A DNA stretch of 32,000 nt from Candidatus Baldrarchaeota archaeon. GTDB taxonomy: Archaea; Asgardarchaeota; Baldrarchaeia; Baldrarchaeales; DXJG01. The notes under the pieces were generated by a model. That model searched no databases. It worked only from the letters and a program-made list of their open reading frames with translations, and was not told the origin of the DNA. The translations under genes were made by a program, and so were the position numbers. Location of the stretch: the NCBI GenBank assembly GCA_019056805.1, contig DXJG01000002.1:253103-285102 (forward strand), given 5' to 3'. Shown here piece after piece: positions 1 through 6,554 of the stretch (the stretch's first letter is position 1; every line of letters starts with the position of its first letter).

Positions 1-2850
1 GTAAAAAAATGTAAAGAAATTGCATTACATAATGCTAATCAATTATCAGAACAATTTAAAAACCTAGGAGTTTGGATGGACTGGGAAAATCCTTACCTAA
101 CATTGAAAGATGAATATATCGAATCTGCGTGGTGGTTAATTAAAAAAGCCTGGGAAAATAACTTACTATATCAAGGAGAGCGAGTAGTCCATTGGTGTCC
201 ACGTTGTGAAACAGTTTTATCAGGATATGAGGTTGCTCAAGAATATAGAGAAGTCTCGGACCCCTCAATCTACGTAAAATTTCCCGTAAAAGGAAAAGAC
301 AAGGAGTTTATCTTAATATGGACCACTACACCATGGACATTGCCAAGTAACACGGGAGTAATGGTCCATCCAGAGTTTACCTATGCCAGAGTTAAAGTAG
401 ATGACGAAGTTTATATTTTAGCCCTAGAACGTTGCGAAGAGGTCTTTAGGGAAGTAAACAAAGAATTTGAAGTTTTAGAGACATTTCCAGGACGAAAACT
501 AGAGGGATTAAAATATCTTCCTCCATTGCTTGAAGAAGTTCCTCTTCAGCGCAAATTACTTGAAGAAGGTAAAGCTTATCGCGTAGTTTTAAGTGAAGAA
601 TACGTTTCACTAGAAGAAGGTACTGGTTGTGTACATAGTGCTCCGGGTCATGGTGAAGAGGACTTTGAAGTCGGTTTAACTTACGGTTTACCTGCAGTAT
701 GCCCCGTAGACGGTAAAGGAGTATTTACCGAAGAAGCAGGTAAATATGCTGGTTTATTCGTAAAAGATGCAGACAAAAAAATAATTGAAGACTTGAAGAA
801 CAAGGGCCTTTTGCTATGGGCTGGCAAAGTCACACACCGTTATCCTCATTGCTGGCGATGTAAAACTCCTCTGCTCTTACGTCTAGCTAAACAATGGTTC
901 ATAAAAGTTTCAGCATTTAAAGACAAAATGTTGGAAGAAAATGAAAAAGTAAAATGGATTCCAGAATGGGCTGGTGCCAGTAGATTCAGAAACTGGTTGG
1001 AAAGTGCGAGAGATTGGGTTATATCAAGGCAAAGATACTGGGGTATACCCCTACCAATTTGGATATGCAACAAATGTGGAAAGAAAATGGTAATTGGATC
1101 GAAGGATGAACTACTCAAGATGGCAGTAAGTGTACCAAGCGAGTTTGAACTTCATAGACCATGGGTTGATGAAGTTATCTTAAACTGTGACTGTGGCGGT
1201 GAAATGAGACGTGTTCCAGATGTCATTGATGTATGGCTTGACTCAGGAATAGCATCCTTTGCATGTCTAGGTTATCCCTGCAAGGAAGAAGAGTTTAAAC
1301 AATGGTGGCCTGCTGATGTCGTTTTAGAAGGGCATGATCAAACTCGTGGTTGGTTCTACACACTCCTATGTACATCTATGATAGCTTTTGACCGAAGACC
1401 CTACGAAACTGTGGTAATGCATGGATTTACCTTGGACGCAGAAGGTAGAGAAATGCATAAAAGCCTAGGAAACTACATTGCACCCGAAGAAGTCATAGAA
1501 AAGTATGGAAGAGATCCCCTGCGCCTATATGAGCTCCAATGTACTTTTTGGGAAGATATACGCTTTAATTGGAACGGTGTAAAAGAAGCGCTCAGAGATT
1601 TAAACATATTATGGAACATATACGTTTTTGCATCAACTTACATGGAAATGGATAAATTCGATCCACTAAAACATTCACTAAGAGATCTCTTACCATTCAT
1701 GAAGATTGAAGATAGATGGATCCTTTCGAGACTACAAAACGTAATTGACAAAGTTACAAACTACATGGATGAATATCTATTTCACGAAGCCCTGAGGTTG
1801 CTTTTAGACTTCATACTAGAAGACGTCAGTAGATGGTATATCAGACTTGTTAGACGTAGAGTATGGATAGAAACCGAAGCTAAGGAAAAACTTGCGGCAT
1901 ACACAGTTCTATACACAGTTCTAAAGAACTGTTTACTTCTACTTGCACCCTTCATACCCTTTGCAACAGAAGCTCTATATCAAAGATTCGTTAAACCGGT
2001 TGAAAAAGATGCGCCAATAAGCGTTCATCTCTGTGACTGGCCGAAACCATCAAAAGAATTCATAGACGATAAACTTGAACAACAAGTAGTATTCGCAAGA
2101 GATATTGTTTCAGCAATCACACAAGCTAGACAATCTACCAAGCCACCAATAAAAATAAGACAACCTCTTAGCAAAGCTATCGTAGTAACAGATTCCCAAG
2201 AAGTTATCGAAACCGTCAAAAACCTTAAAGATCTAATAAAAGATCAAGCAAACATAAAAGAAATTACCGCTCTACATCTAAGCGAAGAAGAAAAATTCAG
2301 GAACGTCTATGTTGAACCTAACTTCGCTTCACTAGGACCAAAGTTTAAACAAAAAACAGCCAAAGTAGCAGAAATAATCAAAAAATTAGACGGAAGAGAA
2401 GTACTTAAATCAATCAACGAAAAGGGATTCTTTGAAATAATGATTGATAACGAGACAATCAAACTAACGAAAGATTATGTGAAATTTAGAGAAGAAATTT
2501 TAGAAGGATACGCAGTTGGAGAATTTCCGAAAGGCAGAGTATACTTGGACGTTACCGTGACAAGAGAGCTTAAAGCGGAGGGTTTGGCTAGAGAAGTAAT
2601 TAGAAGATTTCAAGAGATGAGAAAAGAAGCAAATCTTGAAGTAGAAGCAAAGATAGAAGCTTTTGTTAAATGCCCAGAGTATGAACAGGTCGAACTACTT
2701 AAAGATAGAAAAGAACTAATTATGAGAGAGGTACGAGCAAAGAAACTAGAGGTCATAGGACCAAGAGATGAAACACCGGAAGCATCACATGTTAAAAAAT
2801 GGGACATCGATGGAGAAACATATATAATGGGATTCAATCTCAAAACTTAA
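1..2850 (+). CDS. ileS: Isoleucyl-tRNA synthetase (5'-truncated by window edge)
   Basis: Frame is open from base 1 (VKKCKEIALH...). Motifs WTTTPWTLP, GTGCVHSAPGHG (CP1 editing), DWVISRQRYWG, EGHDQTRGWF and a KMSKS-equivalent EMHKS. Confidence 0.97.
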   Translation, partial: VKKCKEIALHNANQLSEQFKNLGVWMDWENPYLTLKDEYIESAWWLIKKAWENNLLYQGERVVHWCPRCETVLSGYEVAQEYREVSDPSIYVKFPVKGKDKEFILIWTTTPWTLPSNTGVMVHPEFTYARVKVDDEVYILALERCEEVFREVNKEFEVLETFPGRKLEGLKYLPPLLEEVPLQRKLLEEGKAYRVVLSEEYVSLEEGTGCVHSAPGHGEEDFEVGLTYGLPAVCPVDGKGVFTEEAGKYAGLFVKDADKKIIEDLKNKGLLLWAGKVTHRYPHCWRCKTPLLLRLAKQWFIKVSAFKDKMLEENEKVKWIPEWAGASRFRNWLESARDWVISRQRYWGIPLPIWICNKCGKKMVIGSKDELLKMAVSVPSEFELHRPWVDEVILNCDCGGEMRRVPDVIDVWLDSGIASFACLGYPCKEEEFKQWWPADVVLEGHDQTRGWFYTLLCTSMIAFDRRPYETVVMHGFTLDAEGREMHKSLGNYIAPEEVIEKYGRDPLRLYELQCTFWEDIRFNWNGVKEALRDLNILWNIYVFASTYMEMDKFDPLKHSLRDLLPFMKIEDRWILSRLQNVIDKVTNYMDEYLFHEALRLLLDFILEDVSRWYIRLVRRRVWIETEAKEKLAAYTVLYTVLKNCLLLLAPFIPFATEALYQRFVKPVEKDAPISVHLCDWPKPSKEFIDDKLEQQVVFARDIVSAITQARQSTKPPIKIRQPLSKAIVVTDSQEVIETVKNLKDLIKDQANIKEITALHLSEEEKFRNVYVEPNFASLGPKFKQKTAKVAEIIKKLDGREVLKSINEKGFFEIMIDNETIKLTKDYVKFREEILEGYAVGEFPKGRVYLDVTVTRELKAEGLAREVIRRFQEMRKEANLEVEAKIEAFVKCPEYEQVELLKDRKELIMREVRAKKLEVIGPRDETPEASHVKKWDIDGETYIMGFNLKT

Positions 2851-2892
2851 AACACAAACTTCTATTTCTTAATGCATTCATAAGAGGTGTGA

Positions 2893-3186
2893 ATGATGGA
2901 AAATGAATGTCTAATTGACGTTGAGAAACTAGCATCAAAAAGCGAAACATTAACAGATGAACTTGTAGAATTCTTAAAGTTAAAATTTCCAGAATCTGAA
3001 ATTGAAAAAGAAGGAAATAATATCATAGTTAGATCAGAAAGAGCGGTTTCGAAGAGAAAAATAAGATTGTACCTTAAAAAGTTTCTTCATAAAAACGAAT
3101 TAAGTGAAGAGTTTAAAGCCGTCTCGGGTGGAGGTAATAAATTAACTATACTTAAACTTGCTATAACTAAAGAAGAAACCGAATAA
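2893..3186 (+). CDS. rpl22e: Ribosomal protein eL22 (L22e)-like, eukaryotic signature protein
   Basis: IIVRSERAVSKRKIRLYLKKFLHKNEL aligns by eye with the eukaryotic eL22 core [27 protein letters not shown]. Acidic C-terminal tail; 97 aa. Confidence 0.8.
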   Translation: MMENECLIDVEKLASKSETLTDELVEFLKLKFPESEIEKEGNNIIVRSERAVSKRKIRLYLKKFLHKNELSEEFKAVSGGGNKLTILKLAITKEETE

Positions 3187-3233
3187 TCAAATATACTTAC
3201 TCCTTCTTGCGCACCAGAAATAATAGTATAGTA

Positions 3234-4017: not shown

Positions 4018-4210
4018 CATTTGTACCAATTGCTTTGAATAACTGGCAGTCTTTCAAAAAGATCTTTATAACTCACTCCGAGAAATAAATAAATCATATT
4101 TTATCGTAAAATTTTACACAAAATTTTACGACCACTCAACCACCGTAACAACACTTTTAAATTTTTAAATAACAACTTACGATTAAACTATATAAAACGT
4201 AAAATGCAAG

Positions 4211-4954
4211 GTGATGAAAGTGTTCGCACCACACACTGGCTATGATCAAGCAATAACGATTTTCTCACCGGATGGCCGTCTATTTCAAGTAGAATATGCT
4301 GTCGAGGCAGTAAGAAGGGGGACTTCAGCAATAGGAGTAAAGGTGAAGGATGGCGTAGTCCTAGCAGTCGAGAAAAGACTAACAAGCTCACTCATGGAAA
4401 TAAACTCCATATCCAAAATTTATGTTATTGATGAGCATGTAGGTGCTGCGATTGCAGGTCTTCATGCAGATGCAAGAAGACTCGTAGATTATGCAAGAGT
4501 ACAAGCACAAGTAAACAGACTATACTACGAAGAACCAATAACAATAGAACAGTTAACAAAAGCAGTCTGTGATTTAAAACAGAATTATACGCAGTTTGCT
4601 GGTGTCCGTCCTTTCGGCGTAGCTCTCTTAATTGCTGGAGTTGATATAACAGGCCCCCGCCTATTCTCAACACACCCCTCAGGAGCATACTGGGAATGGC
4701 AAGCCACAGCAATAGGAAGAAACGAGGAAAGAGCGCGAGAGTATCTAGAAAAGAATTATAAAAGCAATCTTACAATAAATCAAGCAACAAAACTCGCCAT
4801 CAACGCACTTAAAACAACAGTAGAAGAAGAACTTAAACCTGAGAATGTAGAAATAGCACAAACTTTAGTCAAAACAAAGAAGTTTGAAATCCTACCTATC
4901 AAAAAAGTAGAGGGAATACTTAAAGAAATTAAGAAAAACGAAAAGCAATCCTAA
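4211..4954 (+). CDS. psmA: Proteasome alpha subunit, paralogue 1
   Basis: GYDQAITIFSPDGRLFQVEYA alpha signature and RPFGVALLIAG. True start may be GTG 4220 (MFAPHTGYD), 5 nt after a GGTGA Shine-Dalgarno-like motif. Confidence 0.97.
   Translation: MMKVFAPHTGYDQAITIFSPDGRLFQVEYAVEAVRRGTSAIGVKVKDGVVLAVEKRLTSSLMEINSISKIYVIDEHVGAAIAGLHADARRLVDYARVQAQVNRLYYEEPITIEQLTKAVCDLKQNYTQFAGVRPFGVALLIAGVDITGPRLFSTHPSGAYWEWQATAIGRNEERAREYLEKNYKSNLTINQATKLAINALKTTVEEELKPENVEIAQTLVKTKKFEILPIKKVEGILKEIKKNEKQS
4414..4719 (+). repeat. 306-bp direct repeat, copy 1 (inside psmA paralogue 1)
   Basis: Base-by-base identical to 5300-5605 (caaaatttatgtt...gcaataggaag). Flanks diverge. Confidence 0.95.
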
Positions 4955-5087
4955 ACACTTTATTACAAAATATAAATTTAGTTTTTTGAATTTTACCTAT
5001 TTTAATGTCATCCTTGCATATATTAGCAATAACATTATCTTGTAACGTAAACCTTAATTACAGAGGCGCATACTTTTAAGTGGACAT

Positions 5088-5093
5088 AGGAGG
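5088..5093 (+). promoter_or_regulatory. Shine-Dalgarno for psmA paralogue 2
   Basis: AGGAGG about 10-12 nt upstream of TTG 5103/ATG 5106. Confidence 0.6.
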
Positions 5094-5102
5094 AATTCTA
5101 AT

Positions 5103-5819
5103 TTGATGCGTCTGCCAGGAATGGGATATGATCGTGCAATTACTGTTTTCTCGCCGGATGGCCGTCTATTTCAAGTAGAATATGCAATGGAAGCTGTAAG
5201 AAGAGGAACAACAGTTATAGGAGTAAAGGTGAAGGATGGCGTAGTTTTAGCTGCTGAAAAGAGGTTAACAACACCTCTTATGGATAGTGATACCGTAGAC
5301 AAAATTTATGTTATTGATGAGCATGTAGGTGCTGCGATTGCAGGTCTTCATGCAGATGCAAGAAGACTCGTAGATTATGCAAGAGTACAAGCACAAGTAA
5401 ACAGACTATACTACGAAGAACCAATAACAATAGAACAGTTAACAAAAGCAGTCTGTGATTTAAAACAGAATTATACGCAGTTTGCTGGTGTCCGTCCTTT
5501 CGGCGTAGCTCTCTTAATTGCTGGAGTTGATATAACAGGCCCCCGCCTATTCTCAACACACCCCTCAGGAGCATACTGGGAATGGCAAGCCACAGCAATA
5601 GGAAGGGGAGCTCAAAAAGTAAATGAGATACTAGAAAAAGAGTATAAAAGGGAACTTTCTCTTGAGGATGCCATAAAATTATCGATAAAATCATTAAAAG
5701 AGGTATCTGAAAAGAAACTTGAACCTGAAAACATAGAGCTGGCTGTAGTGAGCGTTAGCGACAAAAAAATCAAAAAACTAGAAAGAGATGAACTATTAAG
5801 ATTGTTATCGCTTCCTTAA
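5103..5819 (+). CDS. psmA: Proteasome alpha subunit, paralogue 2
   Basis: GYDRAITVFSPDGRLFQVEYA alpha signature; full alpha fold length. Confidence 0.97.
   Translation: MMRLPGMGYDRAITVFSPDGRLFQVEYAMEAVRRGTTVIGVKVKDGVVLAAEKRLTTPLMDSDTVDKIYVIDEHVGAAIAGLHADARRLVDYARVQAQVNRLYYEEPITIEQLTKAVCDLKQNYTQFAGVRPFGVALLIAGVDITGPRLFSTHPSGAYWEWQATAIGRGAQKVNEILEKEYKRELSLEDAIKLSIKSLKEVSEKKLEPENIELAVVSVSDKKIKKLERDELLRLLSLP
5300..5605 (+). repeat. 306-bp direct repeat, copy 2 (inside psmA paralogue 2)
   Basis: Identical to 4414-4719, offset 886 bp. Confidence 0.95.
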
Positions 5820-5864: not shown

Positions 5865-6554
5865 ATGGAATCAAGATTTAGTGAGGAGGACTGTTGGAAC
5901 ATCATTAGAACTTGTGAAGATGAAGGAGGAAGAATTCATAATGCTGCGCTCCACATAAAGATTAGAGAAGGAGATCCCTCATTTTTTACGATTACGAAAA
6001 AACTTTTAGATGAAGTTTTTGAGGAAAGAAGTGGAAGAATAATTATTCGCTGGGACAAATCGAAGAAACAGCCAGCAAACATTTGTGTTATAACAGTTAA
6101 TTTTAACCAAACCCCTTCCACGCATTTTGTGGCCATCGCACGAAAAATATACGAAATTTCAAGTTTTGCTACCTCAAGTACTGTCTCAGCAGATTGTACC
6201 ATATATTATGATTCAGAAAACAGATACATAGCTTTTAAAAACATACATTATCCACCTAGAAGCTTTAAATGTAATATAGTGGAAGGCCCAATAAAACCTT
6301 TCAAAGCAGTGACCCGGGATAACAAAACCTTCTTTTTTGAAACCTTAGATGAACTTGAAAAATTTTTGGAGGAAGTCCCACACATAAAAGCTTATACATG
6401 GGACTCAAAAACAAAGAAATGGGCACCATGGGCTCACATCGAAAGAGCAGAGGATAACTTAAAAGTAACAATTCCCACGGTTAAAGGAGTAATAAGAATC
6501 GATGTAGATCTTCATACAGGAAAAGTTAAGACAAAAAGACTGGAAAAAGGATAG
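5865..6554 (+). CDS. Hypothetical protein (229 aa)
   Basis: Long ORF with GGAGG upstream, co-oriented with psmA. No recognisable motif. Confidence 0.7.
   Translation: MESRFSEEDCWNIIRTCEDEGGRIHNAALHIKIREGDPSFFTITKKLLDEVFEERSGRIIIRWDKSKKQPANICVITVNFNQTPSTHFVAIARKIYEISSFATSSTVSADCTIYYDSENRYIAFKNIHYPPRSFKCNIVEGPIKPFKAVTRDNKTFFFETLDELEKFLEEVPHIKAYTWDSKTKKWAPWAHIERAEDNLKVTIPTVKGVIRIDVDLHTGKVKTKRLEKG

Follow-up and report, generated by a model that had tools for sequence, protein, structure and literature searches.

Tandemly duplicated genes that stay alike in one segment and drift apart in the rest have been described from methanogens, where in mtrA-1 and mtrA-2, old archaeal duplicates, one domain is homogenised by long-lasting gene conversion, which was detected from the genome-wise grouping of the paralogs in one segment only (PMC4632066). 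In this paper we looked at a pair of a similar kind, psmA-A and psmA-B (A and B from here on), two neighbouring genes for the proteasome alpha subunit in a stretch of 32,000 nucleotides (the window) from a Candidatus Baldrarchaeota archaeon (assembly GCA_019056805.1, contig DXJG01000002.1, positions 253,103 to 285,102). Coordinates are those of the window unless another contig is named, and all features lie on its forward strand. The two cases differ in what is left unconverted, which in mtrA is an acquired, different transmembrane domain, whereas the ends of the psmA genes are homologous but diverged and gene-specific islands stand between the homogenised blocks. They also differ in time depth, which is hundreds of millions of years for mtrA (PMC4632066) and one genus for the psmA pair.

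Concerted evolution is described for 26 prokaryotic genes, among them tuf, amo, mtm/mtb, glnB and archaeal histone (PMC6053082). The criterion there is the one that applies to psmA, with paralogs within a species being closer than orthologs, and the genes mostly encode proteins that form complexes or homo-oligomers. The proteasome alpha subunit is absent from the list, with no mention of a proteasome in the survey, and methanogens supply all seven of the archaeal examples (PMC6053082). A comparison outside the prokaryotes is exon 5 of the genes for human red and green opsins, in which conversion likewise keeps divergence low and short peaks remain where the paralogs differ in function, such peaks between converted stretches being what selection against conversion is expected to leave behind (model of Teshima and Innan 2008, reviewed in PMC3924837). 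The selected opsin sites are known from experiments, whereas the psmA islands are known from the sequence pattern alone.

Most of the 26 prokaryotic genes are homogenised over their whole length, whereas psmA is a segmental case. Partial conversion that blurs the history of the paralogs was reportedly described by Archibald and Roger in 2002 between subunits of the archaeal chaperonin (thermosome). These are also subunits of a ring-shaped archaeal machine, and its eukaryotic counterpart is fully hetero-oligomeric; they belong to a different protein family from psmA, and we know of no tandem arrangement or conserved island pattern among them. More than one alpha-type subunit, as here, is also present in the 20S proteasome of Haloferax volcanii, whose alpha1 and alpha2 can give proteasome subtypes. 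The Haloferax genes are unlinked, in contrast to the tandem pair here, and to our knowledge no conversion between them has been reported. Our search of the literature gave no relevant report of conversion between proteasome paralogs or of tandem psmA genes in Asgard archaea. The process itself is known from mtrA, tuf and the archaeal chaperonins, and psmA is a clean, multi-genome example of it and not a new process.

Blocks and islands along the two psmA genes

Gene A (4211..4954) has 247 codons from a GTG at 4211, with an ATG at 4214, and gene B (5103..5819) has 238 codons from a TTG at 5103. Judged by their matches, both are archaeal 20S proteasome alpha subunits (PsmA) and tandem paralogs of each other. 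Gene A matches PF00227 (1.3e-63, 214.5 bits) and PF10584 (7e-14, 51.6 bits), gene B matches the same two families (220 and 56.5 bits), all above the gathering scores, and the closest solved structures in a PDB search are archaeal alpha subunits (3H4P, 6HE5 and 1J2P, E 1e-75 to 1e-80).

A script comparison shows that 306 bp of A (4414..4719, codons 69-170; tract copy 1) equal 5300..5605 of B (tract copy 2) letter for letter at an offset of 886 bp. This is the longest exact run between the genes, and two shorter exact matches precede it, one of 32 bp (4268..4299 and 5154..5185) and one of 29 bp (4331..4359 and 5217..5245). Beside the tract, the identity of A and B is only 71.6% upstream (4217-4413, 197 bp) and 49.8% downstream (4720-4930, 211 bp). 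The original prediction, made from the letters alone, had pointed to the long tract, to both short patches and to the diverged parts between and 3' of them, and in the window assembly each of these is exactly as it had said. It had proposed GENECONV as a check, and a permutation test of run length of the Sawyer/GENECONV type was run here, in three versions with 100,000 permutations each (P<1e-5). The 714 aligned sites hold 157 differences, and when these were permuted 100,000 times the observed run was never reached and the longest permuted run did not exceed 72. When polymorphic sites only were permuted, the observed run of 71 sites compared with a permuted maximum of 20-29, and again none of the 100,000 reached it, whether the highly diverged 3' third was kept or removed. 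Chance as the source of the 306-bp run is excluded.

This tandem pair, with unchanged gene order, also occurs in a metagenome-assembled genome (MAG) of a congener (G002), on a 74-kb contig of the Joint Genome Institute (JGI; L080) and on three contigs of the European Nucleotide Archive (L159, L162 and L160/L161), which were assembled at k-mer lengths (k) of 127 or 141 or as scaffolds. Together with the window these represent five species-level lineages with a conserved gene order and spacer. In the nearest outgroup, Ca. Baldrarchaeum yapensis, a single gene represents this alpha lineage. In codon alignments compared segment by segment, the synonymous divergence (dS) of the paralogs in the tract is 0.01 in the window, 0.07-0.2 in L159 and L080 and about 0 in L160, against 0.43-0.95 between orthologs at the same codons; because of the latter values, the silent sites of the tract are free to change. 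The 3' third shows the reverse, with saturated dS and a non-synonymous divergence (dN) of 0.6-0.7 between the paralogs and close orthologs. The trees are incongruent in the same way: the first 13 and last ~70 codons group A with A (support 95) and B with B (99), while in the tract tree the two copies of each genome pair together (89, 72 and 82).

One possible option that needs no conversion is a nucleotide constraint on the core, or else an independent recent duplication in each lineage. The core is indeed the most conserved part of the alpha subunit at the protein level. Yet orthologs differ at 11-16% of the tract sites, mostly silent ones, so that the DNA is not constrained. Across the lineages, both A and B show orthology in their flanks and islands, because of which the duplication is old and single, and gene order and spacer are conserved. 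We find this option hardly credible.

The map becomes sharper when the sites are sorted into orthologous, concerted and other patterns (given below in this order), summed over 10 genome pairs from the five lineages, which are not independent of each other. The N-terminal tail (4211-4249) is orthologous (125/4/3). It is followed by converted block 1 (4250-4299; 0/30/0), which covers the conserved N-terminal signature of alpha subunits and contains the 32-bp exact match, by the gene-specific island 1 (4300..4330, codons 31-40, with its twin in B at 5186..5216; 51/1/3), by converted block 2 (4331-4363, the S1-S2 hairpin, which contains the 29-bp match; 0/44/0) and by the gene-specific island 2 (4364..4413, codons 52-68, twin 5250..5299; 114/0/6). 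Within the tract, the 5' part (4414-4549; 7/73/0) and the 3' part (4601-4719; 0/116/0) together hold 189 concerted and 7 orthologous sites, whereas the segment between them (4550-4600) is mixed (32/38/3). The unconverted 3' third (4720..4954 in A and 5606..5819 in B, with about 50% DNA and 36% protein identity) is orthologous again (647/25/21).

This alternation is alike in each of the 10 genome pairs. Both islands are orthologous in all five lineages and lie between blocks that are concerted in all; in every resolved genome A and B differ at 8-12 of the 31 sites of island 1 and at 15-21 of the 50 sites of island 2, and the amino-acid differences of the islands are fixed within each ortholog group. 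The mixed segment begins with a patch in helix H2 (4550..4574, encoding QLTKAV here, twin 5436..5460) that varies among otherwise identical assemblies; A and B differ at it in L159, L162 and L080, and it is A/B-specific in two sister lineages. Both edges of the tract, at codons 68/69 and, after ...ATAIGR, at codons 170/171, are common to all lineages. In another species, represented by two assemblies (L160 and L161), the exact tract is also 306 bp long, and L159, L162 and L080, assembled at k127/k141, have the same boundaries with exact runs that are shorter than k, because of which these runs cannot be artefacts of collapse. The comparison of boundaries in related genomes, which had been suggested as a check, thus gave shared edges, and it also identified the short patches as converted blocks. 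Concerted sites, near-zero dS between paralogs against 0.43-0.95 between orthologs, incongruent segment trees and the permutation test all support the mosaic gene conversion that had been put forward as a question.

For the structural placement we used an AlphaFold model of A (pLDDT, the predicted local distance difference test score, 87) and PDB entry 1PMA for residue numbering. The model has the expected order of elements, with helix H0, a two-layer beta sandwich and helices H1-H5. The 5' edge of the tract falls on the third base of codon 68, so the first whole codon is that of Lys69, which corresponds to Lys66 of Thermoplasma by a constant offset of 3 to 1PMA (query 10-227, chain 7-223) and is invariant in a 23-sequence alignment. 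In the model, codons 69-170 hold strands S3 and S4, H1 (84-105), H2 (111-127) and S5-S8, in agreement with the earlier placement of the tract start at the K66-equivalent codon and of its span over H1-H2. The 4550-4574 patch falls in the N-terminal half of H2, island 1 is the end of H0 with the loop that follows, and island 2 is the end of S2 with the loop leading to the Lys66-equivalent. Outside, the unconverted 3' third consists of H3, H4 and H5 and the unconverted N-terminal tail holds the gate motif. This motif reads YDQ in every A ortholog of the five lineages (codons 11-13, 4241-4249 in the window) and YDR in B (5127-5135), in the outgroup and in a third alpha paralog of the same MAG; of the other gate and pocket residues compared (the Pro17-equivalent reverse turn and the Lys66-equivalent), both A and B have SPDGR and the invariant Lys.

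The structural partition that had been described, with a homogenised core of S3-S8 with H1/H2 against a diverged tail and diverged H3-H5, is therefore found here as well. H1 and H2 form alpha-beta contacts, and it had been concluded that conversion homogenises the assembly interface. In that form the conclusion found no support. The data point instead to selection, or to short-patch repair, as what preserves islands specific to A or B within the tract and next to it, one of them in H2 in two lineages.

Assembly evidence for the identical tract

Another question that is raised by two perfect copies 886 bp apart is whether the identity was made by an assembler, by merging the similar copies (bubble or bulge removal) and writing the same consensus twice. 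We examined this in Logan contigs (k=31), and not in reads, from four runs, X1 and X2 of one subsurface study, X3 of a different study, and X4; X3 leaves 5055-5813 uncovered and X4 most of the stretch, and only joins made by contigs were used. In X1 and X2 the contigs stop precisely at 4414/4719 and 5300/5605, overlapping by 30 nt, as for a true exact repeat, and leave a 306-nt node. In X2 this node has 0 differences to the window, and in X1 it has a depth of 25.6 against 15.9-16.1 for the single-copy flanks (~1.6x); also in X1, a 32-nt node for the block at 4268-4299 has about twice the single-copy depth. The 3' end of A, the spacer and the 5' end of B are joined on contigs of two runs, and the tandem arrangement is real. 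A 538-nt contig of X3 (4496-5033, 0 differences) links the patch of the window to A-specific 3' sequence, while no B-specific contig was seen in this run; a neighbouring X3 contig begins with a library adapter, so the contigs of this run look like single fragments. Outside the 25-bp patch there is no variant in the four runs. We also considered the Logan depths as a measure of the share of hybrid or converted genomes and rejected them as noise, with A-specific sequence at 10.6-11.6 and the 5' end of B at 20.8 in X1 and the opposite relation in X2.

Several observations weigh against taking the perfect identity at face value. In X1, which is likely the source sample, clustered changes set the node apart from the window at 4550-4574, between identical flanks and with the reading frame kept, so that QLTKAV becomes DLTRIV, and the contigs cannot phase this variant; it resembles the A-type patch of the sister lineages and the outgroup, and a search for it in the MAG itself found none. 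The JGI contig L079 shares 5 of the X1 changes and has no others, and its flanks match the window at 100%. At 486-1208 it joins the 5' end of A straight to the 3' end of B, skipping the loop of A 3' end, spacer and B 5' end. Such a hybrid single gene occurs in many public assemblies (P0008, P0010-P0015, L079 and L163, the last at 2501-3214 on an 83-kb contig of the NCBI MAG GCA_030587435.2), with crossover points that vary within the shared blocks; either the assemblers skip the loop, or the hybrids are real deletion alleles from unequal recombination. A discrepancy of exactly the kind expected from merging is seen between the G002 MAG (L034/L005) and L162, practically the same strain, which differ at 45 positions in 3.65 kb, 44 of them in the three islands of B and one a single-nucleotide difference elsewhere; for the 471-bp "perfect" tract of G002, collapse during assembly is the likeliest origin, with a very recent conversion as the alternative. 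The exact runs on both sides of the patch in the window (136 and 145 bp) also exceed common assembly k values. All sequences used here are metagenome assemblies of a locus that is mishandled in this way, which leaves the length and perfection of any single tract uncertain.

Contigs that end or begin inside the tract were seen as well in two congener MAGs, in G003 at the 3' end of the tract (L007, which with L035 is JAGGSW010000027.1) and about 50 nt before it (L078), and in G001 in mid-tract (L076); such breaks are expected where an exact repeat interrupts assembly.

A merging of copies that are only similar is nevertheless very unlikely in our view. The tract is equally long in another species (L160/L161), X2 has the version of the window and X3 links it to the 3' flank of A, and where assemblies are fully resolved the sub-tracts still share 97-100% identity, so that collapse could do no more than hide the patch and cannot create the pattern. 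For the two sub-tracts (136 and 145 bp) we conclude that the identity is secure. As to the 25-bp patch between them, either the copies are identical as in the assembly and the population contains a second haplotype, or they were collapsed, and we hold an uninterrupted identity of 306 bp in the main strain to be moderately probable. Of the earlier wording "306 bp perfectly identical", the exactness in this assembly stands, and the certainty does not, at a locus that is demonstrably prone to collapse.

Probable gene conversion, with selection or repair mechanics as possible keepers of the islands

Recurrent gene conversion is probably the cause of the segmental concerted pattern, and of the readings weighed here it is the one in which we have good confidence. 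According to this mechanism, a 20S alpha gene would have been duplicated once, before the split of at least five species-level lineages of a Baldrarchaeia-like genus. Homologous recombination between direct repeats 886 bp apart would then have copied stretches from one gene to the other repeatedly, non-reciprocally and in both directions, so that codons 69-170 and two short upstream blocks would be kept identical or nearly so within a genome while drifting between genomes. The first 13 and the last ~70 codons would never have been reached, the islands (codons 31-40 and 52-68) would have been left untouched, and in some lineages codons 114-130 (H2) would also have stayed gene-specific. Conversions that overwrite functionally diverged parts would be removed by selection, and in the 3' third the low homology (~50% identity) would add a mechanical barrier, at which strand exchange would stop anyway. 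We infer the recombination mechanism, the selection on the islands and a functional difference between A and B from the patterns of identity and orthology described above.

The direction of conversion seems to differ between lineages, as judged by the type of the H2 patch. The window has the B-type in both copies and G002 the A-type in both, although the B copy of G002 may be a collapse, and the A-type is also that of the outgroup. Sequences with no difference other than a conversion-type patch (X1, X2 and L079 among themselves, and G002 against L162) fit ongoing exchange, so that the description of the conversion as "ongoing" is supported in part.

What keeps the islands is less easily decided. 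Conversion could be neutral throughout, with a minimum of homology, heteroduplex rejection and short-patch excision setting its borders, and with neither selection nor a functional partition between A and B. At the 3' edge of the tract the DNA identity falls to ~50%, a level at which strand exchange would not succeed in any case, and in Sulfolobus acidocaldarius conversion proceeds in short discontinuous patches that separate markers 20-30 nt apart (PMC3367456). The patch of L079 is itself a fine mosaic of two haplotypes, and it is possible that short-patch, discontinuous mismatch processing as in Sulfolobus acidocaldarius would explain this mosaic too. Random patch repair, however, should not keep the same borders everywhere, and islands of 31 and 50 bp are orthologous in all five lineages (51 against 1 and 114 against 0 sites) while blocks of 33-50 bp were homogenised independently (0/30 and 0/44), with the amino-acid differences of the islands fixed in each ortholog group. 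We therefore regard a purely neutral origin of the map as doubtful. Selection, rather than the mechanics of repair, is what we would name, by a slight preference, as the keeper of the islands. Weighing against it is that this selection is read from the pattern only, and that homology thresholds and the processing of mismatches in short patches could play a part in the absence of any selection.

The 3' third of B raises the question of its origin. Its dN between species is 0.10-0.27 against 0.02-0.06 in A, about fourfold faster. We tried the third alpha paralog (contig 17) as a donor for this part and rejected it, since the identity of 38% is no better than to other Asgard alpha subunits. In protein trees of the flanks, built to date the duplication relative to the single-copy outgroup, the A clade neighbours the outgroup, but B has a long branch whose placement is supported at 28-35. 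We favour B as a fast-evolving duplicate over an older paralog because the dN of its 3' third is about four times that of A. The same third is under constraint and not decaying, because dN/dS between close B orthologs is ~0.17-0.18.

With conversion as the probable cause, the proteasome alpha subunit of an Asgard archaeon joins the short list of archaeal genes that evolve in concert, with a block-and-island map that is unusually sharp and replicated in five lineages. The map marks candidates for functional differences between A and B, namely the tail with the gate motif, the last part of H0, the loop ahead of the Lys66 pocket, a part of H2, and H3-H5. It also has a practical side, as the repeat makes assemblers collapse the pair or overwrite one copy, so that public MAGs misreport the number and sequence of alpha subunits, and trees of Asgard proteasome paralogs built from such assemblies, or from the converted core, would mislead. 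One further option is that A and B share a hetero-oligomeric alpha ring or form two proteasome subtypes, with the gate tail (YDQ against YDR), the loop ahead of the activator pocket and the outer helices H3-H5 specialised and the ring-building core kept interchangeable by conversion. We consider this unlikely, but if true it would show, in a living Asgard archaeon, how a homomeric alpha ring begins to turn into a eukaryote-like heteromeric one, and gene conversion as a mechanism that preserves the compatibility of subunits during their divergence.

Expression signals and neighbouring genes

The contig that holds the window is 612 kb long and belongs to a MAG of 18 contigs and 1.92 Mb. A beta subunit is also encoded in this MAG, and the third alpha paralog is on another of its contigs. 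The third paralog (C17:80734-81441, L003) is 59% identical to A and has orthologs in the congeners and the outgroup; this gives three alpha subunits in this genus, against two in most of the relatives searched.

Each gene of the pair has its own conserved upstream block. The one ahead of A (4147..4184), with the TATA-like TTTTAAATTTTTA, is invariant across four lineages. The spacer between A and B (4955..5102), defined from a four-lineage alignment and the sequence, contains a T-run after the stop of A (4982-4987), a conserved block (5043-5067) and a strong ribosome-binding site, GGAGG at 5089-5093, which sits 9 nt ahead of the TTG start of B. We infer promoter and terminator roles for the spacer elements and the TATA-like block, which are thus putative signals. 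All lineages retain the TTG at 5103, whereas two of them have ATA in place of the ATG at 5106. Gene callers chose the ATG at 5106, so that database entries for B start one codon late; in an exact look-up of protein clusters the GTG-start and TTG-start translations were unmatched and the ATG-start translations were matched.

By their Pfam matches, the neighbours of the pair are an L22e-like gene and a small-GTPase gene, which are in keeping with an Asgard archaeon. Directly 3' of B there is an open reading frame of 229 codons (5865-6554, forward strand) without a Pfam match, which is found in the same position at the related loci L159, L160, L161, L162 and L005.

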